DNA from: an uncultured delta proteobacterium
GTDB lineage: Bacteria; Myxococcota_A; Polyangia; Fen-1088
Reading direction: 5' to 3'
Assembly: GCA_963767925.1 (NCBI GenBank)
Contig: CAVYGB010000002.1
Location: 416,001 to 480,000 of the forward strand
DNA length: 64,000 bases
Both the position numbers and the translations under genes were made by a program. Below are positions 3,866-16,460 of this stretch, piece after piece. The notes beneath the pieces are model-generated. The model was given only the letters and a program-made list of their open reading frames with translations, had not been told where the DNA came from and did not search any database. Positions within the stretch are counted from its first letter, which is position 1. Every line of letters starts with the position of its first letter.

Positions 3866-4684
3866 TCATCGGATCGACCCCGCGGTCAGGCCGCCCACGA
3901 TGCGACGCTGGAAGACCAGCACCAGCAGGACCACGGGCAACGTCGAGAGGACGGTGGCGGCGAGGATCTGGCCCCAGGGGATCTGGTGCTGGCCGCGGAG
4001 CAGGGCCACCGCCACCGACACCGTCTGCCGCTCGGGACCGGTGGTGAAGGAGAGGGCGAACAGGAACTCGTTCCAGCAATAGATGAAGGTCAAGATGGCG
4101 GTGGTGGCGAGGCCGGGCATCGCGATCGGCAAGACGATCTCCCAGAGGGTGCGCAGGCGGCCGGCGCCGTCCACCATGGCCGCCGCCTCCAGGTCCCGGG
4201 GGAGCTGGCGGAAGTAGCCGGTCAGCAGCCAGACCACCAGCGGCATGGCGAAGGTGAAGTAGGGCAACACCAGGCCGGGGTAGGTGTTGATCAGCCCGAG
4301 CGCACGCAGGCCGAGGTAGAGGGGCGAGACGACCGCGATCTGCGGGAAGACGCTCACCGCGAGCACGAGGGCGGTCAGGGCGTTGCGCCCCCGGAACTGC
4401 AGGCGGGCGATGGCGTAGGCGGCCAGGGCGCCCAGCGAGACACAGACAACCGTGGTGGAGGCCGCCACCACCAGGGAGTTCCGGAGCGGCATCCAGAAGT
4501 CGCGCTCGGCGAACAGGGCCCGGTAGTGCTCGAGCCCGAGCCGGTCGGGGCGCAGGCCCACCCCCTGGTAAAGGTGGGCCTCGGGCAGCAACGAGGAGAT
4601 CAGCGCCCAGTAGAGGGGAAAGGCGATGGCGAGCACGAGCGCCCCCACCGCTGCCCGGGCCGCCCAGCGCCCGAAGCCCGTCAC
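3866..4684 (-). CDS. Carbohydrate ABC transporter permease (MalG type)
   Basis: EAA-loop LEAAAMVDGA, WNEFLFAL, GGLTAGSIR C-terminus. Confidence 0.95.
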   Translation of the reverse strand: MTGFGRWAARAAVGALVLAIAFPLYWALISSLLPEAHLYQGVGLRPDRLGLEHYRALFAERDFWMPLRNSLVVAASTTVVCVSLGALAAYAIARLQFRGRNALTALVLAVSVFPQIAVVSPLYLGLRALGLINTYPGLVLPYFTFAMPLVVWLLTGYFRQLPRDLEAAAMVDGAGRLRTLWEIVLPIAMPGLATTAILTFIYCWNEFLFALSFTTGPERQTVSVAVALLRGQHQIPWGQILAATVLSTLPVVLLVLVFQRRIVGGLTAGSIR

Positions 4685-6876
4685 CGGCGGGTCCCTTCGC
4701 TGGCGCCAGGCCCGGCGCCGGCGAGCGCGCGGGTGTACAGGAGGGCCAGGCCGAAGGCCACCGCGAACACCACCACCGAGAGGGCCGAGCCGTAGCCGAA
4801 GCGCAGGTGGTGCAGCAGGGCGGCGAAGGTGTAGAGCGCCACCGGCTCGGTCGCCGTGCCGGGGCCGCCGCCGGTCAGCACGTAGACCAGGTCGAAGACG
4901 CGGAAGGCGTCGAGGCTGCGAAAGACCAAGACCACCAGCAGCGCGGGACGCAGCAACGGCAGCGTGATGTGCCAGAGCTGGCGGGCCGGGGTGGCCCCGT
5001 CAGTCCGGGCGGCCTCGTACAGGCGCGGGTCGATGCTCTGCAGCCCGGCCAGCAGCAGCAGGGCCACGAAGGGGGTCGTCTTCCAGATGTCGGCGAGCAG
5101 CAGGGGGACCCAGGCCAGCAGCGGCCGGGAGAACCAGGCCGGCCCGGCGTCGACGAGGCCGCTGGCGGCGAGCAACCGGTTGACCACCCCGACGTCGGCG
5201 AACATGAACTGCCAGACCAGCGCCGCCACGACGGTGGGCAGGGCCCAGGGCAGCAGGACGGTGGTGCGGAGCAGGCCGCGCCCGCGGGTCACGTGGTGCA
5301 GGGCGAGGGCCAGCACCAGGCCCAGCACGACCTCGGCGCCGACGGTGATGGCGGTGAACACCGCCGTGTGGGCCAGCGCCTCCCAGAAGCGGGCGGCGCC
5401 GAGCAGCTCGCCGTAGTTGGCCAGGCCGATGAAGGGGCGGCCCTGGGCGGGCAAGCGGAGGTCGTGCTGGTGCAGCGACTCCCACGCCGTCCAGAGCAGC
5501 GGGGCGAACCCCACGAGGGCCATCACGGTGAGGGCAGGGGCGAGCAGCGCCCAGGCGACCGGTCCATCGGCGCTCCGCTCGGGGGCGTCGGGTTCGCCGC
5601 GGCGGCGATGGCGGCGGCGGCGCCAGAGGAGAGCCGCCGCGGCGAGGACGAGCGCGAGCAGGGTGGCCCCGGCGAGGGGCGCCCGGCCGCCGGCCGTCGG
5701 GCGCGCGGTGGCCTGGGCCAGGATCCGCCGCATGCGCTCGGCCGCGGCGGCGAGGGCGGCGGCGGGCGCCTTCTGCCGGGTGAGGGCGGCGTGCAGCTCC
5801 ACCTGCAGCGCCGCCGAGGTCTCGGCGTAGAGCGGTGTCACCGGCCGGGCCACCGCCCGCTCGACGATGGCCCGCACGTCCGCCACCGGCACGGAGAGCG
5901 CGCGGGCCAGGCGCGGATCGTCGTAGAGGGATCGCCGCGCCGGGTATTGCCCCGCCAGGCGCGCCCGCTCGAGGCTCTGCTCGGGCGCGGTGAGGAAGCG
6001 GACCAGCTCGACCGCCGCCTCCGGGTGCGCCGAGCGGGCGTTGACCGCCAGCCGCGCCCCGCCGAGCGCCGCCGCCGGACGCCCGCCCGGCCCGGCCGGC
6101 AAGGCGGCCACCCCCACCCGCCCGGCCACCTGCGACCCCGCCGCGTCCGCCAGCAAGGGATAGGCGTAGGGCCAGTTGCGCATGAAGGCCGCCTGCCCGT
6201 TCTGAAAGGCGAAGCGCACCGGCTCCTCCTGCCAGGCCAGCGCAGCCTCCGGCACCAGCCCGGATCGCACCGAATCGCACATGAAGGCGAGCGCCCGCAG
6301 CGCCGCAGGCTCGTCGAGCCGCACCCGCCCCCCCTCGTCGAGGATCCGCCCGCCGAACGCCGCCAGGTGCTCGACGAACACCGTGACGAGCCCCTCGTAG
6401 CGGGCCCCCTGCCAGACGAACCCGTAACGGGCTCGCCCCGACCGCACCAGCGCCAGCCCCTGGTCCCGCAGCGCCAGGAGGTCCACCGGCGGCGCCGGCA
6501 CCAGGTCCCGCCGGTAATACAACATCCCCACGTCGACGAAGATCGGCAGCGCGAACAGCCGCCCCTCGAAGCGATCCGCCGCCAGCACCTGGGGAAAGAA
6601 GTCCGCCGCCTCGCTCTCGAGCGCGTCGAGCGGTCGAACCCACCCCGCCGAAGCCAGCTCCGGCGTCCAGACCACATCGAGCTGGAGAACATCGGGCTGC
6701 CGCGCCCCCGCGTTCAACCACTGCACATAGAGATGGTGCCGCTGATCCGCCCCATCCGGCGTCGGCTGCCGCGTGACCGTCCACCCCCGCTGCCCCCGCT
6801 CGAACGCCGCAAGCTGCCGTTCGAACACGGCCCCCTCCGCCCCCACCGCACTCCCAGAGAACACCAGCTCCGGCAT
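4681..6876 (-). CDS. Fused sugar-binding protein + MalF-type permease (trehalose/maltose-like); start uncertain
   Basis: N-terminal SBP (PDVLQLDVVW, QGARYEGL, FMRNWPY), a TM linker, then permease (DIWKTTPF, LYEAARTDGA, GGGPGTATE) in one open frame. Confidence 0.85.
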   Translation of the reverse strand: MPELVFSGSAVGAEGAVFERQLAAFERGQRGWTVTRQPTPDGADQRHHLYVQWLNAGARQPDVLQLDVVWTPELASAGWVRPLDALESEAADFFPQVLAADRFEGRLFALPIFVDVGMLYYRRDLVPAPPVDLLALRDQGLALVRSGRARYGFVWQGARYEGLVTVFVEHLAAFGGRILDEGGRVRLDEPAALRALAFMCDSVRSGLVPEAALAWQEEPVRFAFQNGQAAFMRNWPYAYPLLADAAGSQVAGRVGVAALPAGPGGRPAAALGGARLAVNARSAHPEAAVELVRFLTAPEQSLERARLAGQYPARRSLYDDPRLARALSVPVADVRAIVERAVARPVTPLYAETSAALQVELHAALTRQKAPAAALAAAAERMRRILAQATARPTAGGRAPLAGATLLALVLAAAALLWRRRRHRRRGEPDAPERSADGPVAWALLAPALTVMALVGFAPLLWTAWESLHQHDLRLPAQGRPFIGLANYGELLGAARFWEALAHTAVFTAITVGAEVVLGLVLALALHHVTRGRGLLRTTVLLPWALPTVVAALVWQFMFADVGVVNRLLAASGLVDAGPAWFSRPLLAWVPLLLADIWKTTPFVALLLLAGLQSIDPRLYEAARTDGATPARQLWHITLPLLRPALLVVLVFRSLDAFRVFDLVYVLTGGGPGTATEPVALYTFAALLHHLRFGYGSALSVVVFAVAFGLALLYTRALAGAGPGASEGTRR

Positions 6877-7126
6877 GGAAGCGCCATCATAGAGGATCAC
6901 CAGCGCTGCGCCCGCGCGCCGGGGCAATTCGCCGCGATTCACGCCGAGGGTTGGTCCCAGGTGAGGGCGAGCCCCGGCGATGGCGGGCGCCTCGGGCGCG
7001 CGAACCGCCGGGGCGCGAACCGCGGGGGAGCGGGGTGCGCGAGCGGGGTGCGGGGTGCGGGAGCGGGCCCGGCATCGCGCGCGGGGAACGTGGTCTCGGC
7101 TGCGAGCGGGCGGTGGGACCGTCCGT

Positions 7127-7498
7127 TCAGAGGACGATCGCGATGGGGCCGGGCAACGGCGCGGCGGGCGCGGCGAGCTGGGCGAGCAGACGGTGGACCT
7201 CCACCATGAGCGCCGCGACCGGCATCTCGCCCAGCAGCGGCCCGGGTCCACGCGACAACTTCTCGAGCCCCTTGCCGAGGAGCCCGGCCGCCGGACCGCG
7301 CCGCCCACCCTGCAGGTGGTGCAGCCCCGCCGCGATCTGGATGAGCCCCTGAACCCGCACCCGCTCGATCCCGACGGGCGCGTGCCAGACATCCTCCCAG
7401 TGCTCGTGCGCCTCGAAGTACCGCCCAGCATTGAAGGCCACCCGTCCCTCTTCGAGCCGCTCCCGCCAGAGGTCCTTCGCACCCGGGGACACCAGCAT
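7127..7498 (-). CDS. DUF309 domain protein
   Basis: FNAGRYFEAHEHWEDVW and QGLIQIAAGLHH. Confidence 0.9.
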   Translation of the reverse strand: MLVSPGAKDLWRERLEEGRVAFNAGRYFEAHEHWEDVWHAPVGIERVRVQGLIQIAAGLHHLQGGRRGPAAGLLGKGLEKLSRGPGPLLGEMPVAALMVEVHRLLAQLAAPAAPLPGPIAIVL

Positions 7499-7766
7499 CG
7501 ACTGTGGCACGTCGCCCGGAGATCCGGCAAGGCGGCCACCGGTCGACCCCGTACGGTCCCCCCTCACCACCAGCTCGCCCACTCGCCCCCTTTTCACCAC
7601 TCGCCCACCCGCCCGCGGGCCCCCTTCCCACTCGCCGACTCGCCGGCGCGGACTCGCCCTCACGGCGGCGGGACCTTGCCCGTGATGTGCGCCGGCGTTA
7701 CCTTGGCCCGGGGTGGACGGCGGGTTGTCGTCGCGCCCAGGATTCACCCGACGGAAGGCCACGGCG

Positions 7767-8102
7767 ATGAAGAAATTTCTCGTTCTCTACAAGGCCCCCA
7801 CCGCATCGTTCGAGCAGATGATGAAGGCCACGCCGGAGCAGCAGAAGGCCGGCATGGACGCCTGGATGGCCTGGGCCACCAAGGCCGGCCCCTCGATCGT
7901 CGACATGGGCGCCCCCCTCGGCAAGAGCCTCCAGGTCACCCCCACGGGCGCCTCCCCCATCAAGAACGACCTCGGCGGCTACTCGATCATGCAAGCCGAC
8001 TCCAAAGAAGCCCTCGCCGAGACCATGAAGGGCCACCCCCACTTCATGACCCCCAGCGGCACCGTCGAAATCACCGAGCTGATGCCCCTCCCCGGCACGT
8101 AG
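7767..8102 (+). CDS. YciI-like dimeric alpha/beta-barrel protein
   Basis: MKKFLVLY...AWMAW...DMGAPL...GGYSIMQADS...HPHF...VEITEL pattern. Confidence 0.75.
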   Translation: MKKFLVLYKAPTASFEQMMKATPEQQKAGMDAWMAWATKAGPSIVDMGAPLGKSLQVTPTGASPIKNDLGGYSIMQADSKEALAETMKGHPHFMTPSGTVEITELMPLPGT

Positions 8103-8305
8103 ACGCCCGGGCGCCAGGTGACGCCGGGGCGCCGGGGCCTCGATCGCCAATCGGCGGCCGCGGTCCCCGCCCGTGGCGGCCTGGGAGGTCGAGCACCCGC
8201 AGCCTCGACTTGGAGCTCTCACGCCCGGGTCGCTCCGCCAGTGGCCCCGTTCCGACCTCGGACACCCGCCCGACGTGAAATCCTCCCGCCTCGAGCGGAA
8301 CGGTC

Positions 8306-8334
8306 TTGATCTTTTACTGCGATCATACTATTAT
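8306..8334 (+). promoter_or_regulatory. Sigma70-type promoter of the transposase fragment
   Basis: TTGATC-N17-TATTAT in an AT-rich patch, 12 nt before ATG 8347; overlaps a TGATC-N9-GATCA inverted repeat. Confidence 0.55.
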
Positions 8335-8346
8335 CGCCCCATTCAA

Positions 8347-8643
8347 ATGACAATTGGCCCGCGTTGCGCTCAGCTCGCCTTGCCCCGGACCGGCGGGTGG
8401 GGAGGGCGACGGAGAGGGGCCGGGCGGCCGCCGATTCCGGGGCGGAGGCGGCTGGTGCCGCATCGGACGCGGCTGGCGCACAAGGGGGCTCACCCTTTGC
8501 ACGTGACCTTGCGCGCGAGGGCGGGCTTGCTCTCGCTGCGGTCGAAGCGGGTGTTCGGGGTGCTGCGGGCGTGTTTCCGGGCGGCGAGCCCGGCGGCCTT
8601 CCGGGTGGTGCAGTTTTCGGTGCAGGCCAACCACGTGCACCTG
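8347..8643 (+). pseudogene. 5' fragment of a RAYT/IS200-like (Y1 HUH) transposase
   Basis: GWGGRRRGAGRP, PLHVTLR, FRVVQFSVQANHVHL (HUH motif); similarity ends right after HUH. Confidence 0.8.
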
Positions 8644-8644
8644 C

Positions 8645-9085
8645 GCAGAGCGTTTGTGGCAGGCGCTGCCCGCTTTCGAATGGAGATGTTCGCTCCGGAC
8701 CTGGGTGTATCGCCTGGCACGGACCGCCTCGGCCGACGTCCATCGAAGGGCTCAGCGCCGCGCTCGCCACGAAGTTCGGCCCGCTACCTCAGCCGCCTAC
8801 GAAGAGCTCCAGGCCGAGGTGCGCACCGGAACCCTCTCGATGCTGAAGACGGCCAGGCGCGCGGAGCTCGAGCGGCTCCGCGACGAGTTGCCCGCAGAGG
8901 ATCGCCTGCTGCTGATCTTGCGGGTGGATCGTGATCTTTCCTGGCGTGACGTGGCCCTGGTGGTGTCGGATCTCTCAGAGAGCGCGGAGGAGACACTCGC
9001 GCAGGAGGCCGCCCGCCTGCGCAAGCGGTTCCAGCTCGTCAAAGATCGCTTGCGTGAAGCGGCTCGAGCGCGGCAGCTGATCTGA
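8645..9085 (+). pseudogene. 3' fragment of a myxobacterial-type ECF sigma factor (N-terminus missing)
   Basis: LWQALPAFEWRCSLRTWVYRLAR (region 2) and EDRLLLILRVDRDLSWRDVA...ARLRKRFQ (region 4). Confidence 0.75.
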
Positions 9086-9091
9086 ACGTGC

Positions 9092-9410
9092 TCACTCGGC
9101 CGGCGGGGGCGCCGGGCGTGGCAGTCGGCTGGCGAGGAACTCGCGCCAGCCAGGCGGGGCCCAGGCCAACCGTCTGTCCTCCTGGGGCTTCGAGGGGATC
9201 CCTCCTCCTGGCGGAAGACCTCTGGCCCGGTGGGGTTGTACGTCCGGGAGCAGGAGAGAAAGGCCGGAGAGACCCCGATCGGGACGGAGGCCGACCCGGG
9301 CGTTGCTCAGCGCGACCCGAAACGTGGCAATGCCGGCCCGATCGAACACGGCGAACTCCTCGAGCCGGTCGATGAAGCTTCCGATGTCGACGTAGTCGGA
9401 TCCTCGAGGA
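9092..9410 (-). pseudogene. Possible C-terminal remnant of a clostripain-like (peptidase C11) protein
   Basis: DYVDIGSF...SGLSLLLP...WREFL pattern resembles C11 C-termini; no N-terminal part present. Confidence 0.35.
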
Positions 9411-9460: not shown

Positions 9461-10747
9461 TCAGCCGGCGGCGGCCGACCCGACCGGGGCCACCCCGACG
9501 GGCGCGCGCTCGGCGGCGGCGATGAAGGCCTGGACCTGGGGGTAGACCAGCTCGCGCCAGCGCCGGCCACTGAAGATGCCGTAGTGTCCGGCGCCGCCGA
9601 CGGTGAGGTGCCGCTTGCGCCCCGCCGGCAGGCCGGCGCACAGGACGTGGGCCGCCTCGGTCTGGCCGAGGCCGGAGATGTCGTCCAGCTCGCCCTCGAT
9701 GGTGAACAGCGCGGCGCTCGCGATGGCCTCGGGCGCCACCCGCTCGCCGCCCACCTGCCAGAGCCCGCGCGGCAGCAGGTGCTGCTGGAACACGATGCGG
9801 ACGCAGTCGAGGAAATACTCCGCCGGCATGTCGAGGGCGGCGTTGTATTCGTCGTAAAAGCGGCGGTGCTCGGCGGCGTTCTGGGCCTCGCCCCGCACCA
9901 GGTGCTCGTAAAAGGCGAGGTGGGAGCCGAGGTGGCGGGCGGGGTTCATCGCCATGAAGTTGCCGAGCTGGAGAAAACCGGGGCAGACGCGGCGGCCCCG
10001 GCCGGGGTAAGGCGCCGGCACCTGGTGCAGCAGGTAGCGCTCGAACCAGCTCAGCGGCTGGGTGGTGGCCAGCCGGTTTACCTCGGTCGGGCTGAACCGG
10101 GTGTCGAGGGGCCCGCCCATCAGGGTCAGGCTGCGCGGCTCGCGCTCGCCGGCCGCCGCGATCAGCGACGCCGCCGCCAGCGCCGGGACCGCCGCCTGAC
10201 AGACCGCCAGGAGGTGCAGGCGCTCCGGGCCGATGTGGCGGATGAACGTCCGCAGGTAGCCGACATAGTCCTCGAGCGAGAAGCCGCCCCGATCGGTCGG
10301 CACCAGGCGCGCGTCGGTCCAGTCGGTGACATACACCTGATGGCCGCCGAGCAGGCTGCGCACGGTGTCGCGCAGCAGGGTGGCGTGATGGCCCGACAAG
10401 GGCGCCACCACCAGCACCACCGGATCGCGGGCCAGCGCCCCCACCACCTCCGCCCGGTCGGCGAAGCGCTGGAACCGCTGCAGGCGGCAAAACGGCAAGT
10501 CGAGCACCGTCTGCTCGACCACCGCCACCTCGGCGCCGTGGGCCTGCACCGACGGGATGCCGAAGGTCGGCTTGTCGTAACGTTTGCCGAGCCGATAGAG
10601 CAGCTCGTAACCGGCCGCTACCTGCGCTGCGCCAGGGAGCTGGGAGAGCCAGCTCTCCGGGGCCGAGAAGATGTTGGCGCCGGCCCGGGCCAGATCCAGC
10701 CCCGGTCCGACGAAAGCGCGGTTGAGCTCGTGAAGCGCGTACAACAC
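9461..10747 (-). CDS. phaZ: Intracellular polyhydroxyalkanoate depolymerase
   Basis: MLYALHE-type start (GTG), VAPLSGHHATLLRDTV, AVCQ catalytic Cys box, TIEGELDDISG, GHYGIFSGRRW. Confidence 0.95.
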   Translation of the reverse strand: MLYALHELNRAFVGPGLDLARAGANIFSAPESWLSQLPGAAQVAAGYELLYRLGKRYDKPTFGIPSVQAHGAEVAVVEQTVLDLPFCRLQRFQRFADRAEVVGALARDPVVLVVAPLSGHHATLLRDTVRSLLGGHQVYVTDWTDARLVPTDRGGFSLEDYVGYLRTFIRHIGPERLHLLAVCQAAVPALAAASLIAAAGEREPRSLTLMGGPLDTRFSPTEVNRLATTQPLSWFERYLLHQVPAPYPGRGRRVCPGFLQLGNFMAMNPARHLGSHLAFYEHLVRGEAQNAAEHRRFYDEYNAALDMPAEYFLDCVRIVFQQHLLPRGLWQVGGERVAPEAIASAALFTIEGELDDISGLGQTEAAHVLCAGLPAGRKRHLTVGGAGHYGIFSGRRWRELVYPQVQAFIAAAERAPVGVAPVGSAAAG

Positions 10748-10788
10748 CTCGCTGACCCCCTGTCGCGTCCACAACGCGACAAGCGGGT

Positions 10789-10853
10789 ATCATACCAGCT
10801 TCACATCCGGTCTCGACAGCAATCCCTGTCGCTCACTGCGCTGTCGGTCACTG
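10789..10853 (-). promoter_or_regulatory. Putative internal phaZ promoter with repeated operator-like motif
   Basis: Extended -10 TGGTATGAT (10789-10797); direct repeat CTGTCG(C/G)TCACTG at 10826-10838 and 10841-10853; inverted CGACAG at 10814-10819. Confidence 0.4.
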
Positions 10854-10887
10854 AAACGGTCCTTCGGTTGTGTCCCTCGTGCCGTTC

Positions 10888-11685
10888 CTACTGTGCGGTC
10901 CAGCCTCCATCCACCACGATGGTCTGTCCGGTGATGTTGCGGGCGGCGGGCGAGAGCAGGAAGGCGGTGATGCCGGCCAGCTCGTCGAGTCCGATGAACA
11001 CGCCTTTCGGCATCGGGGCGAGCATGACCGTGCGGATCACCTCCCCTTCGGGCAGCCCGCGCACCCGCGCCTGGTCGGCGATCTGCCGGTCGACCAGCGG
11101 CGTCTTCACGTAGCTCGGGCAGATGGTGTTGATGGTGACGTCGGTGTCGGCGGTCTCGAGGGCGAGGGCCCGGGTCAAGCCCACCAGCCCGTGTTTGGCC
11201 GCCACGTAGGCGCTCTTGAAGGGGCTGGCCACCAGGGCGTGGATGCTCCCCATGTTCACGATCCGGCCGAAGCCCTGCCGGCGCATGCCGGGCAGGGCCG
11301 CCCGGGTCAGGCGGGCCACCCCGATCAACATCACCTGGATCAGCAGCTCCCAGCGAGCCGGCGGAAACTCCTCCAGCGGCGCGACATGTTGCAGGCCGGC
11401 GTTGTTCACCAGCACCTCGATCGGCCGCCCGAGCCGGGTCAGCGCGGCCGCGACGCTGGCGTCCGAGGTCACGTCCAGCACCAGCGCCTCGGCCGCCCCG
11501 CCCGCCTGGCGGATCCCGGCCGCCACCCCCTCGACCGCGCCGCGCTCGAGATCGCTCACCACCACCGCGTGGCCGGCCGCCGCCAGCTCCCGGGCCAGGC
11601 CGGCGCCGATGCCGCTGGCGGCGCCGGTGATCAGGATGTGGCGGGCGTCGGCGCGGGACCCGGCCCCCGGGGGTGAAGGACCCAT
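10888..11685 (-). CDS. bdhA: D-3-hydroxybutyrate dehydrogenase (SDR)
   Basis: TGAASGIG, NNAGLQHVAPLEEFP, SIHALVASPFKSAYVAAKHG, DGGWTAQ. Confidence 0.92.
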   Translation of the reverse strand: MGPSPPGAGSRADARHILITGAASGIGAGLARELAAAGHAVVVSDLERGAVEGVAAGIRQAGGAAEALVLDVTSDASVAAALTRLGRPIEVLVNNAGLQHVAPLEEFPPARWELLIQVMLIGVARLTRAALPGMRRQGFGRIVNMGSIHALVASPFKSAYVAAKHGLVGLTRALALETADTDVTINTICPSYVKTPLVDRQIADQARVRGLPEGEVIRTVMLAPMPKGVFIGLDELAGITAFLLSPAARNITGQTIVVDGGWTAQ

Positions 11686-11696
11686 CGCGGCGCCCG

Positions 11697-12686
11697 CTAC
11701 CAGTCGAGCAGGGCCGCGCCCCAGGAGAGGCCGCCCCCGAACCCGCACAACATGACCCGCGAGCCCCGCTGCAGCCGCCCGCTCTCCCGGGCCCGGGCCA
11801 GGGTCAGCGGGATGCTGGCGGCGGCGGTGTTGCCGTAGGTCTCGACGGTCGTCACCGTCCGTTCCATCGGCAGCTCGAGCGACTTCATCATCGCCTCGAT
11901 CATCCGCAGGTTGCTCTGGTGCAGCACCACCAGGTCGAGGTCGTCCGGCTCGAGCTGGTGCTCGTGCAGCAGCGCCCGGATGGTGCGGGGGACGGTGGTG
12001 ACGGCGAAGTCCCAGACCTTGGGCCCGTCCATCATGAAGGTGTTGAGGCGCCGGGCCAGCACGTCGGCGTCGACCGGCTGGCGGGTGCCGCCGGCCGGCA
12101 CCTGGATGCAGCGGCTGCCCCGGCCGTCGCTGCCCAGCCGGAAGTGGATGCGCCGGTCGTGCTCCTCGGTCTGCGACAGCAACACCGCCCCCGCCCCGTC
12201 GCCGAAGAAGATGCAGGTGCGCCGGTCGTTCCAGTTGAGCACCTTGGTGAAGGCGTCGGTGCCGATGACCAGCGTGTTGCGAAACTGCTCGGGCGCCGCC
12301 AGCATCATGCTCTGGGCCACGTCGAGGGCGAACACGAACCCGGCGCAGACCGAGTTGACGTCGAAGGCCGGGCACTGCCGCTCGCCCAGCCCCAGCTTCT
12401 CCTGGATCAGGCAGGCCACCGCCGGCTGCGACTGATCGGGCGTCGCGCAGGCCACCACGATGAGGTCGACCTCCGACCGATCGAGGCCACCCTGGCTCAG
12501 GCAGCGCAGCGCCGCCTGGCAGCCCATGTCGCTGGGGGCCTCACCGGGCGCGGAGATCCGCCGCTCCTCGATCCCGGTCTTGGTGAGAATCCAGTCGTGC
12601 GAGGTGTCGACCTGGCGGGCCAGCTCCTCGTTGCTCATCGTCCTGCTGGGTACGTAGGCCCCCACGCCGGCCACTCGAATGCCCAT
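11697..12686 (-). CDS. KAS III (FabH-family) condensing enzyme; candidate NphT7-like acetoacetyl-CoA synthase
   Basis: Cys-His-Asn triad in FDVNSVC, LHQSN, YGNTAAAS; also TPDQSQP and VPAGGTRQP; lies inside the PHA cluster. Confidence 0.9.
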   Translation of the reverse strand: MGIRVAGVGAYVPSRTMSNEELARQVDTSHDWILTKTGIEERRISAPGEAPSDMGCQAALRCLSQGGLDRSEVDLIVVACATPDQSQPAVACLIQEKLGLGERQCPAFDVNSVCAGFVFALDVAQSMMLAAPEQFRNTLVIGTDAFTKVLNWNDRRTCIFFGDGAGAVLLSQTEEHDRRIHFRLGSDGRGSRCIQVPAGGTRQPVDADVLARRLNTFMMDGPKVWDFAVTTVPRTIRALLHEHQLEPDDLDLVVLHQSNLRMIEAMMKSLELPMERTVTTVETYGNTAAASIPLTLARARESGRLQRGSRVMLCGFGGGLSWGAALLDW

Positions 12687-12700
12687 GGTCAACGCGCCTT

Positions 12701-13708
12701 TCAATCCCGCAGCGACGGTTGCGCCTGCTCCCAGAGCAGGGCCCCGCCCATCCGGACCTCCCGCTCGCGCAGGAACCAGCGGCACTTGGTCCGCCCGTAT
12801 TCGCGCAGCTCCTCCAGCATCTCGGGGCGGCGATCCAGCTTCGACCGGTAGTTCAGCTCGCGATCGAGGGCGATGCGCGAGACCTGGATGGGGTGGAAGC
12901 GGGGATCGTTGATCCGCCCCTGGGCGATGGCCCGGTTGATCTCGTCGATGAAACGCAGCTCCTGCTCCATCGACAGGTTGCCGGCCAGGGCGTTGCGGCG
13001 GTCGAGGATCTCGTGGGTCTCGGTGGGGATGCGGGGGCAGGTGCTCGAGTTGATCTGGATCAGCCACAGCTCGTCGAGCTGGTGCTCGATGAGGTCGTGG
13101 ATCGGCGGGTTCTGGGAGAAGAGGCCGTCCCAGAACACGCCCCGCCCCGGCACGTGGACCGCCCGGAACAGCTCCGGCACGGCGGCCGAGGCCAGCAGGC
13201 TCTCGACGCACAGGTCCTCGCCGGTGAAGATCTCGAAGTGCCCGCTCAGGACCTCGACCGCGCCGATCTGGAGGATGGGAGCGCCCGGCTGGCGGGCCAG
13301 CCGGCGCAGCTCCTCGAAGTCGAAGTGTTGCTCGAGGATGGCCCGGAAGCGCTCCTCCCCCAGGGGCGGCAGGTGGTAGGGGCTCACCTCGGGCAAGATC
13401 ATGAGGTCGCGCAGGCCCATGATCCCCATCAGGGTCTGGTTGAGGATCCGGTCCCCCATCTCCCGGGCCGAGACCGCCTGCCAGAAGGCCTGCAGCTTCT
13501 GGACCGCCCGCTGGGGATCGCCCCGCAGCAGGCCGTCCCAGGCCAGGGCGGCGCACATCGCCCCGCCCGAGGTGCCACTCAGCGCCACCACCTCGACGTC
13601 CTCCGGGAGGTTCGCCAGCAGGTTCTGCAGGACGCCCGCGGTGAAGGCGGTGTGGCTGCCTCCTCCCTGGCAGGCGATCGCTACCCGACTCCGTGTCCCG
13701 TTTGACAT
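12701..13708 (-). CDS. Patatin-like hydrolase, possible PhaZh1-type PHA depolymerase
   Basis: IACQGGGSHTAFTAG (oxyanion loop), GTSGG nucleophile elbow, WDGLFSQNPP. Confidence 0.88.
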   Translation of the reverse strand: MSNGTRSRVAIACQGGGSHTAFTAGVLQNLLANLPEDVEVVALSGTSGGAMCAALAWDGLLRGDPQRAVQKLQAFWQAVSAREMGDRILNQTLMGIMGLRDLMILPEVSPYHLPPLGEERFRAILEQHFDFEELRRLARQPGAPILQIGAVEVLSGHFEIFTGEDLCVESLLASAAVPELFRAVHVPGRGVFWDGLFSQNPPIHDLIEHQLDELWLIQINSSTCPRIPTETHEILDRRNALAGNLSMEQELRFIDEINRAIAQGRINDPRFHPIQVSRIALDRELNYRSKLDRRPEMLEELREYGRTKCRWFLREREVRMGGALLWEQAQPSLRD

Positions 13709-13714
13709 GGCTCT

Positions 13715-14872
13715 CTACTCCGTTCCTGGGTTGGCGTGACCGGACTGGTTTGCGGGGGAGGGTGCGGGGCGGGAGGCGGGCGTGGAGCGCGCGGCCATCC
13801 AGCGCGTCGCCTCGGGCCAGAGCGTGCGCTGGGCCTTGCCCCCGACGATCAGCCCGACGTGCCCGGCGTCGATGGTGAACGAGCGGATGTCGCGGGACCC
13901 GACGAGGGGGCGGATGCCCTCGGTCGAGGCGGGGGCCACCAGGTGGTCGTTGCGGGCGGTGAGCAGCAGCAGGGGGCAGACGATCCGGCTCAGGTCCACC
14001 GCCCGCTCCCCGAGGTGGAGCTGGCCGCGGGTCAGCTCGTTGCCCTGGTAGAGCTTCTTGACGAACTCGCGGAAGGTCTCGCCGGCGACCGGGATGTTGT
14101 CGTTGATCCAGCGCTCCATCGCGAAGAAGCTCGACACCGCCTGCAGGTCGTCCATCTGCTCGTAGAAGGCCAGGTTCTTCTCCAGCATGTTCTGGACCGG
14201 CTTCATGCTCAGGAAGCAGGCCTGGAGGAACCAGGCCGGGCAGTTGCCGTGGGCGTCGACGAAGGCGTCCACGTCGAAGTGCTGGCGGTCGGCCCAGAGC
14301 TGCAGGAGGGACTCGCGCCCGGAGAAATCGATGGGGGCGGCCAGCAGGGTGAGGCTGCAGATCGTCTCGGGGTGGAGCGCCGTGAACAGCGCCGATATCG
14401 TCCCGCCCATGCAGTAGCCCAGCAGGTGCAGGTCGCGGCGGCGGTGGGCCCGCAGGATGAAGTCGACGACCCGCCCGAGAAAGCCGCCCACGTAGTCGGC
14501 CAGCGCGAGGTGGCGGTCGCCGTCGCCCGGCACCCCCCAGTCGATCAGGTAGACGTCGAAGCCCTCGCGCAGGTAGCGGGCGGCCACGCTCTTGTCCGGC
14601 TGCAGGTCGAGGATGTAGGCCCGGTTGATGAGGGCGTAACAGAGCAGCACCGGCTCGGCGTGGGTGGCGGGCGTCTCGCGCCGGTAGCGCAGGAGCTTGA
14701 ACATCGGCTCCTCCAGCACGACGTCGCGAGGGGTGGTGCCGACCCTCGTGCCCGAAGCCACCTCGACCACCTGGGGGAAGCTGAGCAGCCGCCGCCACAT
14801 GCGCTGCTGCTCGGCGAACATCGCCGCCAGGGGCTCGAAGTCGACCCGCGCCCGTCCCGTTCCCGCGTCCAT
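13715..14872 (-). CDS. phaC: PHA synthase PhaC, class III/IV size (385 aa)
   Basis: GTTPRDVV, YALINRAYILDLQPDKS, lipase box GYCMGG, RNDHL (Asp), AGHVG (His); GGAGGAG RBS. Confidence 0.95.
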   Translation of the reverse strand: MDAGTGRARVDFEPLAAMFAEQQRMWRRLLSFPQVVEVASGTRVGTTPRDVVLEEPMFKLLRYRRETPATHAEPVLLCYALINRAYILDLQPDKSVAARYLREGFDVYLIDWGVPGDGDRHLALADYVGGFLGRVVDFILRAHRRRDLHLLGYCMGGTISALFTALHPETICSLTLLAAPIDFSGRESLLQLWADRQHFDVDAFVDAHGNCPAWFLQACFLSMKPVQNMLEKNLAFYEQMDDLQAVSSFFAMERWINDNIPVAGETFREFVKKLYQGNELTRGQLHLGERAVDLSRIVCPLLLLTARNDHLVAPASTEGIRPLVGSRDIRSFTIDAGHVGLIVGGKAQRTLWPEATRWMAARSTPASRPAPSPANQSGHANPGTE

Positions 14873-14912
14873 GGGGGCTCCTCCGGTTTCCATCTTCTGG
14901 TGGTCCCGGCCT

Positions 14913-15707
14913 TCACATCGCCATGCCGCCGTTGACGTCGAGGACGTGGCCGGTGACGAACCCGGCCGCCGGCGAGGCCAGGTAGAGCACGCTGGCCGCG
15001 ATCTCCTGGGGATCGCCGAGCCGGCCGACCGGCGTCTGATCGAGGACCGATTGCAGGGCGGCCTCGGGGACACCCTCCAGCATGCGGGTCTTGACGAAGC
15101 CGGGCGCGATCGCGTTGACCGTGACGCCCTTGCGGGCATATTCGCGGGCCAGGGCCTTCGTCAGCCCGATCAGGCCCGCCTTGGCGGCGGCGTAGTTGGT
15201 CTGCCCGAAGTTCCCGATGCGGCCCACGATGCTCGAGATGTTGATGACCCGCCCCCACTTGCGCGCCGCCATCCCGTCGATGAACCGCTTGGTGACGTCG
15301 AAGACGCTGTTGAGGTTGGTGTTGATCACGCTGTCCCAGTCTGGCCGCTCCATCTTGCGGAAGGTGCCGTCGCGGGTGATGCCGGCGTTGTTGACCAGGA
15401 TGTCGATCACCTGAAAGTCGTCGATCACCCGGGTACACATCTTCTCCACCTCGGCCGGGATCCCCACGTCGAAGGGGTAGGCCTTCGCCTGCCTGCCCCC
15501 CTCCCGGATCTCCCGGCAGACCTGCTCGGCCGACTCGGCCCCCAGCGGGCTGGATCCGATGGCGACGTCGGCGCCCGCCGAGGCGAGCATGAGGGCGCAG
15601 GCCCGCCCGATGCCGCGCGAGCCCCCGGTTATGAACACCTTCTTGCCGAGCAGGCTGAAGCCGGGGACGAGGACGCCGCTGCCGGGGACGAGATCGAGAG
15701 ATGTCAT
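14913..15707 (-). CDS. phaB: Acetoacetyl-CoA reductase (PhaB/FabG-type SDR)
   Basis: TGGSRGIG, NNAGITRDGTFRKM, GNFGQTNYAAAKAG, VNGGMAM; directly upstream of phaC. Confidence 0.85.
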   Translation of the reverse strand: MTSLDLVPGSGVLVPGFSLLGKKVFITGGSRGIGRACALMLASAGADVAIGSSPLGAESAEQVCREIREGGRQAKAYPFDVGIPAEVEKMCTRVIDDFQVIDILVNNAGITRDGTFRKMERPDWDSVINTNLNSVFDVTKRFIDGMAARKWGRVINISSIVGRIGNFGQTNYAAAKAGLIGLTKALAREYARKGVTVNAIAPGFVKTRMLEGVPEAALQSVLDQTPVGRLGDPQEIAASVLYLASPAAGFVTGHVLDVNGGMAM

Positions 15708-15997
15708 GGGAGGTTCTCCTGTCCGAGTCGCGCCGGACCGTTGCGGCCGGTCGAGAGGGCCAAAGTTCTGAGGTTCCGTTGCATGAGGTCCAGGAACACC
15801 GGCGACCTCAGGTAGCGATCGGAGGCGCGGGTCACCTCGGCCAGCCAGGGGACGCGCTGGCGGCGGGAATCGGCGAGCAGAGCCGCCGCCGCCAGCAGGC
15901 CGCCGCCGCCGACCGCCCCCATCTGCTGGCACAGGCGCAACCACTGCTCGGTGAGGGCGACGAGCGGATGGGGGGGGGTGGGTGCGGGGGGAATCAC
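15704..15997 (-). CDS. Small protein (97 aa), PhaE-like segment
   Basis: GTG start with GGAGAG RBS; stop overlaps phaB start (ATGA); contains WLAEVTRASDRYLRSPVFLDLMQRNL. Confidence 0.55.
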   Translation of the reverse strand: MIPPAPTPPHPLVALTEQWLRLCQQMGAVGGGGLLAAAALLADSRRQRVPWLAEVTRASDRYLRSPVFLDLMQRNLRTLALSTGRNGPARLGQENLP

Positions 15998-16028
15998 GGG
16001 GACTCTCCGGCGGGCGTCGGCGGTTCCG

Positions 16029-16460
16029 TCAGGAGACCTCGGTGGCCGACTCGGACTGGGCCTTCTGGACCATCTCCGCGGTCCGCTCCGACCACTTCTG
16101 GAACTCGCGGAACTGCGTCTCGGACTGCTGCTTGAACGTCTCGAACAGCTTGCGCCCGAGGTCTTCGGCCACCTTGCGGTAGTCCTCGGGGGACTTGGCC
16201 TCCGAGACCCGGAAGGTCTGCTCGACCGCCTGGATGGCCGACTTGTAGGCGTTGTCCAGCGAGGTCCGGTGGTCATTGAGCATCTCGAGGGTCAGATCGA
16301 CCCAGCGCTTCTGCAGATCGCGGGCCCACTCGGTCGAGGCGCCGGTGGCGCTGGTGGGCGCGGCCTGCCACTGCTGGGTCCATTGCTTGAAGACGTCCTG
16401 CTGCATCTGCAGGGAGGACTCGGATGCCTTGCGAAAGCTCTCGAAGATCTGATCGAACAT
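16029..16460 (-). CDS. Amphipathic helical protein (143 aa), phasin/PhaE-like
   Basis: Gln/Glu/Lys-rich all-helical sequence (MFDQIFESFRKASESSLQMQQDVFKQW...), first gene of the PHA cluster, GGAGGA RBS. Confidence 0.7.
   Translation of the reverse strand: MFDQIFESFRKASESSLQMQQDVFKQWTQQWQAAPTSATGASTEWARDLQKRWVDLTLEMLNDHRTSLDNAYKSAIQAVEQTFRVSEAKSPEDYRKVAEDLGRKLFETFKQQSETQFREFQKWSERTAEMVQKAQSESATEVS

Follow-up and report, generated by a model that had tools for sequence, protein, structure and literature searches.

A Conserved Polyhydroxyalkanoate Operon of Uncultured Polyangia with a KAS III Gene in the Thiolase Position

In the textbook route, polyhydroxybutyrate (PHB) is made in three steps by PhaA, PhaB, and PhaC, and both PhaC and the PhaB-type reductases take coenzyme A (CoA) thioesters as substrates. 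In the parts of the literature that were available, a malonyl-CoA bypass with NphT7, the acetoacetyl-CoA synthase of Streptomyces sp. CL190 (EC 2.3.1.194) and a member of the β-ketoacyl-acyl carrier protein (ACP) synthase III (KAS III) family, is treated as an engineering device against the unfavorable equilibrium of the thiolase. The NphT7-to-PHB routes found there came from engineered strains only (Pseudomonas putida and cyanobacteria), and the full-text literature, subscription journals not included, yielded no account of a natural KAS III within a polyhydroxyalkanoate (PHA) operon. Here we describe a window of 64,000 nt from an uncultured member of the Polyangia (contig CAVYGB010000002.1, positions 416,001 to 480,000), in which an eight-gene pha operon carries a KAS III gene. 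This operon shares the reductase and synthase steps with the canonical PhaA-PhaB-PhaC system but contains no thiolase. The route proposed for it is the same malonyl-CoA bypass as in the engineered strains, from which the arrangement differs in being natural and conserved. What appears to be new is a PHA operon with KAS III in the thiolase position; the conservation of this arrangement is well supported, and its chemistry is unproven.

Conserved linkage of the KAS III gene to pha genes

Eight consecutive, co-oriented genes were recognized on the minus strand between 9461 and 16460 by frame analysis of third-position GC content (GC3) and open reading frame (ORF) calls. Because the G+C content of the window is approximately 72%, genes were called by GC3 and frame and not by ORF length. 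The intergenic spacings, in the order from the phasin gene to phaZ, are 31, −4, 40, 6, 14, 11, and 113 nt. The close spacing and the pha-type gene content given in the initial annotation were confirmed. PhaZ and BdhA, the pair for PHB mobilization, both scored above the cut-offs of their TIGR models (TIGR01849 and TIGR01963, respectively), the latter family being specific for the C4 monomer. PhaC reached 361.5 bits on the class III model TIGR01836, 3.8 bits short of the cut-off of 365.3, and its lipase box, GYCMGG, is invariant across 21 orthologues. The short-chain dehydrogenase/reductase (SDR) at 14913-15707 fell slightly short of the cut-offs of both of its TIGR models, with 291.5 bits against 297.75 for TIGR01830 (FabG) and 288.3 bits against 302.1 for TIGR01829 (acetoacetyl-CoA reductase). 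When AcpP, FabD, FabF, and two thiolases of the same genome served as tblastn queries (E<=1e-3), no acpP, fabD, fabF, or thiolase gene was detected in the 64-kb window, so that the earlier remark that no thiolase, ACP, or fab gene lies nearby holds for the whole window.

A homology search listed 120 clusters of KAS III homologues at 74-84% identity, nearly all of them 329 aa in length. Among 1.84 billion representatives the family formed a single cluster at 50% identity (557 bits), the next full-length match scoring 288 bits, and the pha-linked KAS III is on this basis a discrete family. A scan of a genome collection yielded 39 loci, of which 30 carried the KAS III gene at 61-81% identity; the remaining nine were accounted for by ordinary FabH genes (38-47%) or a decayed copy. 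The 30 loci belong to metagenome-assembled genomes (MAGs) of Polyangia or Myxococcota type, one of which is labeled Acidobacteriota. PHA genes adjoin the KAS III gene in all 30 of these loci, and because of this recurrence the eight-gene arrangement exceeds chance. In 24 of the 30, phaC lies directly upstream of the KAS III gene, with the patatin gene intervening in 7 of the 24; three loci are stand-alone phasin-patatin-KAS3 modules, two are truncated by contig ends with bdhA or phaZ downstream, and one, which is frameshift-ridden, retains phaB, patatin, and bdhA.

Since this set had been ascertained through KAS III, a second survey was started from PhaC. Orthologous PhaC (E<=1e-110) was present in 20 of 401 sampled genomes of the class: besides the window's own genome (G000), it occurred in 18 of 71 genomes of the same family, in 1 of 33 of a second family, and nowhere else. 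At 18 of the 19 non-window loci a KAS III gene was found within 1.5 kb downstream of phaC (13 directly, 5 behind patatin), whereas in the 19th genome (G1013) it was located on a different contig from phaC, in a phasin-KAS3-bdhA-phaZ cluster (74% identity). Neither the KAS III-based (30 loci) nor the PhaC-based (19 loci) survey turned up a thiolase at any locus. The conservation of the KAS III-pha arrangement is therefore well supported, and the recurring linkage to phaB and phaC without phaA, which the initial annotation had suggested looking for, was indeed found. In related loci, phasin homologues (43-62% identity) occupy the first position of the cluster, and SDR homologues share 72-81% identity. 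The patatin gene directly precedes the KAS III gene in 8 of the 30 loci found through KAS III, in the window itself, in 5 of the 19 found through PhaC, and in the three stand-alone modules.

The stand-alone modules (L008 6538-8984, L012 6436-8949, and L033 6544-8981) have an MscS channel gene and Lon/DnaJ genes as neighbors, and the three MAGs that contain them also carry the full cluster, with KAS III behind phaC; the modules suggest that patatin and KAS III work together. A third, decayed-looking cluster in the same MAG as L008 and L018 (L043) gave partial, low-identity matches to phaB, phaC, KAS III, bdhA, and phaZ. The KAS III genes of L032 and L038 contain in-frame stops, possibly as a result of long-read indel errors.

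In a sample of 401 genomes from the phylum, orthologous PhaC was found in one genome besides the window's own, and the other 160 matches were PhaC-like genes at 31-42% identity. Neither a thiolase nor a pha-type KAS III was detected beside these genes at any of the 19 loci with flanks examined; five of these loci had a weak SDR match (33-38%) nearby and nothing more. Many Myxococcota have such PhaC-like genes (31-42%) but no other pha genes with them; frequently there are two divergent copies, separated by about 9-10 kb (for example, L100 8257-10276 in G611, L088, L091, L092, L097-L099, and L101). In one Myxococcota genome, a different non-canonical KAS III (TPDQPSP, GGASR) directly adjoins a PhaC-like gene.

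Relationship of the pha-linked KAS III to FabH and NphT7

The window enzyme contains the two KAS III domains (PF08545, 91.8 bits; PF08541, 121.8 bits), and its Cys114-His256-Asn286 triad is intact and invariant in 29 of 29 orthologues. The source genome (9.3 Mb, 13 contigs, 84% complete) encodes a second enzyme of this type on contig C8, which scored 385 bits as FabH and lies within rpmF-plsX-fabH-fabD-fabG-acpP-fabF. Identity between the two is 35.6%. The possibility that the window gene is the housekeeping fabH was thus ruled out, in agreement with the initial annotation, which had not regarded it as the fatty-acid starter enzyme. One AcpP-like gene was found in the genome by tblastn. The closest solved chain was FabH 4ryb (278 bits), and none of the 60 PDB chains listed was an acetoacetyl-CoA synthase by name.

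In work by Okamura from 2010, the nphT7 gene is said to occupy the position after the 3-hydroxy-3-methylglutaryl-CoA synthase (HMGS) gene of a mevalonate cluster. References of NphT7 type were therefore picked by mevalonate-cluster context among 401 sampled actinomycete genomes. HMGS scored above the cut-off in 3 of these genomes, and in all 3 a KAS III gene was next after it, the cluster consisting of mevalonate kinase, decarboxylase, phosphomevalonate kinase, IDI-2, HMGS, and then KAS III. By this position we take the three enzymes (L050, L051, and L052) to be of NphT7 type, and they stood in for NphT7 in the comparisons.

In a careful maximum-likelihood (ML) tree of 65 rows (LG+G4), canonical FabH (34 rows, including E. 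coli FabH and the genome's own) split off with support of 100/100. The pha enzymes (100/100) fell into a 22-row clade (99/95) together with the three NphT7-type enzymes and ten other representatives. Two quick trees, one of 90 rows under LG+G4 and one under a PMSF mixture, concurred, with support of 98 and 92/99 (SH-aLRT), and the clade itself received 92 under PMSF. The expected grouping with NphT7-type enzymes was thus recovered in the ML tree, but the approximately unbiased (AU) test did not reject a tree in which the pha enzymes were constrained to the FabH side (delta lnL 27.8, p-AU 0.176). For P0129, the nearest relative outside the pha family, a metagenome scan gave relatives of at most 50% identity and none closer.

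Residues were compared among 29 pha enzymes, 3 NphT7-type enzymes, and 115 canonical FabH-like representatives (Table 1). K36, Q87, V111, a basic residue at 152, and M250 are common to the pha and NphT7-type enzymes and rare or absent in the 115 canonical rows; position 257 of the pha enzymes is mostly S. Zhang et al. are said to have assigned an ACP-docking role to R36, K214, and R249 of FabH in 2001. PMC10054515 places R36, R151, and R249 at the mouth of the FabH tunnel, and PMC5432608, citing Okamura 2010, explains the absence of KAS III activity in NphT7 by the loss of the ACP-binding arginine.

Table 1. State of selected positions (E. coli FabH numbering) in the three groups of KAS III enzymes.
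Position	pha enzymes	NphT7-type enzymes	Canonical FabH-like enzymes
36	K (27/29)	K	R in 109/115
87	Q (all)	Q	Q in 0/115
111	V	V	V in 11/115
152	R	K	K in 5/115
214	D/E in 27/29	R	K/R in 106/115
249	R in 29/29	V in 3/3	R in 114/115
250	M	M or L	M in 5/115

All five peptide strings that had been quoted from the enzyme were found in its translation. The motif strings are ATPDQSQP and AFDVNSVC in the window enzyme, STPDRPQP and AFDVNAVC in the NphT7-type enzymes, and VTPDHPFP and AFDLSAAC in the genome's own FabH. TPDxxQP and FDVNAVC, given in the initial annotation as NphT7 traits, were accordingly present in the enzymes identified by context and are shared by the window enzyme, in the second case as AFDVNSVC. 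The motif VPAGG(S/T)RxP is also common to the window and NphT7-type enzymes. An AGGSR-type motif has been proposed for CoA recognition, and A(G)GGSR had been taken as a mark of NphT7. GG[ST]R occurred in 12 of 14 pha enzymes (PAGGTR in the window enzyme) and in 3 of 3 NphT7-type enzymes. Since 25 of the 115 canonical rows, the genome's own FabH among them, have it as well, the motif alone is not diagnostic of the NphT7 type.

The window enzyme thus resembles NphT7-type enzymes in the KAS III fold, the Cys-His-Asn triad, the motifs TPDxxQP, FDVNxVC, and VPAGG(S/T)RxP, the five residues named above, and membership of the 22-row clade, and both are stand-alone paralogues in an operon of a CoA-thioester pathway, in the place of a thiolase. 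It differs from them in identity (approximately 40%), in having Arg249 instead of Val and Asp/Glu instead of Arg at 214, and in genomic position, between patatin and bdhA in a PHA operon rather than after HMGS in a mevalonate cluster. With housekeeping FabH (E. coli FabH, PDB 1hn9; 4ryb) it shares the domains, the triad, W32, R151, N247, and R249, and it differs in lying outside the fab operon, in the substitutions R36K, F87Q, K214D, and I250M, and in its place outside the canonical clade (100/100, the AU test not being significant). Eight pocket or channel states, C62, C80, S110, F156, W213, L243, S246, and A276, are invariant in the pha family and unique to it. Because R249 is kept, the charge at 214 is reversed, and these eight states are unique, orthology with NphT7 was rejected, and the pha-linked KAS III forms a separate lineage.

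Proposed pathway and alternative explanations

The eight genes are best explained as a self-contained operon with which one family-level lineage of uncultured Polyangia stores and mobilizes PHB. The analysis shows the gene content, its conserved linkage, the paralogy to FabH, the intact triad, the tree position, and the residue pattern, and from them we infer the substrates, the product, and the location on the granule. In the proposed pathway, acetyl-CoA would prime the KAS III on Cys114, and decarboxylative condensation with malonyl-CoA would give acetoacetyl-CoA. KAS III would in this way do the work of the thiolase PhaA in an irreversible reaction, paid for with the ATP that acetyl-CoA carboxylase consumes. 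Acetoacetyl-CoA would then be reduced by the PhaB-like enzyme to (R)-3-hydroxybutyryl-CoA, which PhaC would polymerize, probably together with the 97-aa small subunit. The phasin and the patatin-like hydrolase may be located on the granule, PhaZ and BdhA would mobilize the polymer, and the unlinked thiolases would serve breakdown. Because the neighboring enzymes use CoA, the gene occupies the phaA position, the enzyme is a dedicated and conserved paralogue, and no carrier protein is encoded near, we judge the chances to be evenly balanced that this KAS III is a new acetoacetyl-CoA synthase lineage feeding PhaB and PhaC. The complete picture is somewhat more tentative and falls a little below that balance. 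It comprises a natural route to PHB that needs no thiolase and is driven by ATP; a KAS III related to NphT7 but distinct from it (Arg249 kept, Lys214 reversed), acting on the granule with the patatin-like protein; a 97-aa mini-subunit that replaces PhaE; and acetoacetyl-CoA synthesis (KAS III) and breakdown (thiolase) on separate enzymes.

Several results weigh against the acetoacetyl-CoA synthase reading. R261 of the window enzyme, which corresponds to R249 of E. coli FabH, is retained, unlike in the NphT7-type enzymes, and of 12 columns, listed without bias, that distinguish the FabH consensus from that of the pha enzymes, the NphT7-type enzymes side with pha in 4 and with FabH in 6. The identity of approximately 40% to NphT7-type enzymes is not above that to other FabHs (39-44%). 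The enzyme scored 327.9 bits on the fabH model TIGR00747 (cut-off 292.1), a hidden Markov model that cannot separate the two functions because the NphT7-type enzymes score 281-294 bits on it too. The FabH-side placement left standing by the AU test belongs here as well. The two surveys are not independent of each other, nor are their loci, since they draw on the same genome collection and one lineage. Finally, thiolases are encoded elsewhere: the genome contains a PcaF-like thiolase (C13), a stand-alone acetyl-CoA acetyltransferase-like one outside the operon (C10), and a split one (C8), and each of five other cluster-bearing genomes has 3-4 thiolases above the cut-off. The operon is conserved and contains no thiolase, but because of the thiolases elsewhere in the genome the "phaA-independent" of the initial proposal describes operon structure alone. 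The split, FadA-like thiolase gene (G000:C8:1654804-1655822; L106 6814-7823) is in two pieces in different frames, which may reflect a frameshift, a pseudogene, or an assembly error.

Over-expressed together with PhaC, E. coli FabH behaves as a 3-hydroxyacyl-ACP:CoA transacylase, and the pha-linked KAS III might likewise draw C4 units from fatty-acid synthesis. It would then use malonyl-ACP or act as such a transacylase. The FabG-like reductase would reduce the ACP ester, and transfer of the unit to CoA for PhaC would fall to the KAS III or to the patatin-like protein. PMC8231600, citing Nomura 2004, records that FabH can supply PHA synthase by turning R-3-hydroxyacyl-ACP into the corresponding CoA ester. 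The retention of Arg249 in 29 of 29 enzymes, the fabH score above the cut-off, the FabH-side placement that passes the AU test (p 0.176), and the tight coupling of patatin and KAS III, including the three stand-alone modules, are all consistent with this explanation, as are the equal scores of the reductase as FabG and as acetoacetyl-CoA reductase. The ACP-docking residue R129 of FabG is uninformative for the reductase, since the genome's own FabG also lacks it. We nevertheless consider an ACP-linked route unlikely, as no ACP, FabD, or FabF was detected by tblastn in the window and only one AcpP-like gene in the genome, the charge at position 214 is reversed to D/E with 257 mostly S, and the ML trees put the enzyme outside canonical FabH. 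Moreover, a dedicated paralogue conserved at 74-84% would be needless if the housekeeping FabH sufficed.

The Q87 pocket could instead take propionyl-, butyryl-, or hydroxyacyl-CoA, in which case the enzyme would set copolymer composition in the manner of BktB. According to PMC8231600, again citing Nomura 2004, residue F87 of FabH determines chain length. Q87 is found in all pha enzymes and in none of the 115 canonical ones, in addition to the eight family-specific, invariant pocket or channel positions. We regard another primer as very improbable, because Q87 is carried by the NphT7-type enzymes too, whose published primer is acetyl-CoA (PMC5432608), and the BdhA of the operon belongs to a C4-specific family. 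It is also conceivable that the KAS III does not supply monomer at all and takes part with the patatin-like hydrolase in an acyl-transfer or lipid reaction at the granule surface, or in mobilization. This would fit the occurrence of phasin-patatin-KAS3 modules between MscS and Lon genes in three MAGs and the KAS III of G1013, which sits with phasin, bdhA, and phaZ away from phaB-phaC. The same three MAGs, however, hold the full cluster with KAS III behind phaC, and the triad of decarboxylating condensing enzymes is invariant. By established knowledge of the PHB cycle, we know of no mobilization step that requires a Claisen condensation, and a role outside monomer supply is accordingly rated as highly unlikely.

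A candidate PhaC subunit, operon layout, and implications

In class III systems PhaC is paired with PhaE, and the window operon resembles them in the score of its PhaC on the class III model and the GYCMGG box, but no match to PhaE (PF09712) was found in the window at E<=10. It encodes instead a 97-aa protein, orthologues of which follow phasin and precede phaB at most loci and share the motif LRSPAFLELMRxNL. The small ORFs gave no Pfam match, and a language-model search gave a weak lead from the 97-aa protein to a PhaE cluster (score 0.79). Complex prediction of the 97-aa protein with PhaC gave an ipSAE of 0.62, compared with 0.00 for the best of three controls; 116 of 157 solved complexes attain the ipSAE mark, as do 2 of 215 mismatched pairs, and a pass may reflect likeness to any already solved PhaEC-like complex. 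The runs agreed in at least 38% of contacts, with a partner pLDDT of at least 54. In the predicted interface, the conserved C-terminal half of the 97-aa protein lies on PhaC residues 187-232 (cap region). Because it is predicted to bind PhaC, the 97-aa protein may be a new type of small subunit for class III-like PHA synthases. Its gene is translationally coupled to phaB: it starts at GTG 15997 with GGAGAG upstream, and its TGA overlaps the phaB ATG (ATGA).

Table 2. Genes of the pha operon in the window, in the order phasin to phaZ.
Gene product	Position	Strand	Family match or assignment
Phasin-like protein, 143 aa	16029-16460	-	Pfam Phasin_2, 19.1 bits (under cut-off 24.9)
Conserved small protein, 97 aa	15704-15997	-	Family: none; candidate PhaC-binding subunit (mini-PhaE/PhaR analogue)
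PhaB-like NADPH-type SDR, 264 aa (acetoacetyl-CoA reductase or FabG-like)	14913-15707	-	TIGR01829, TIGR01830
Class III-like PHA synthase PhaC	13715-14872	-	TIGR01836; PhaC_N and Abhydrolase_1
Patatin-like serine hydrolase, 335 aa	12701-13708	-	PF01734, 61.9 bits; GTSGG and DGL motifs
pha-linked KAS III, 329 aa; proposed acetoacetyl-CoA synthase	11697-12686	-	PF08545 and PF08541
3-Hydroxybutyrate dehydrogenase BdhA	10888-11685	-	TIGR01963, 342.5 bits (cut-off 307.05)
Intracellular PHB depolymerase PhaZ	9461-10774	-	TIGR01849, 528.5 bits (cut-off 300.75); PHB_depo_C

As shown in Table 2, the genes of the operon follow each other closely. The start of phaC was assigned to ATG 14872, preceded by GGAGGA, with 14893 as an alternative, and that of bdhA to ATG 11685, 11 nt past the KAS III stop; phaZ starts at TTG 10774 or GTG 10747. 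By consensus matches alone, a promoter-like site lies upstream of phaZ (10816-10789) and a terminator-like hairpin downstream (9278-9264). On one side the operon adjoins an AHSA1-like gene and asparagine synthase, and on the other unassigned ORFs and a sugar ABC transporter. In the stretch that separates this transporter from phaZ (7713-9400) the frame signal is weak, and three ORFs tried there gave zero family matches. A 952-aa ORF at 4681-7539 on the minus strand, with coding-like GC3, combines SBP_bac_1 and BPD_transp_1 and may be a fusion or a merger across a missed stop.

If the proposed chemistry is true, evolution would have reached the same solution as the engineered bypass, and metabolic engineering would gain in the pha-linked KAS III a second lineage of acetoacetyl-CoA synthases. 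The 97-aa partner of PhaC would widen the known types of PHA synthase subunits. An acetoacetyl-CoA supply of this kind could also explain carbon storage by these soil predators at a low acetyl-CoA/CoA ratio.

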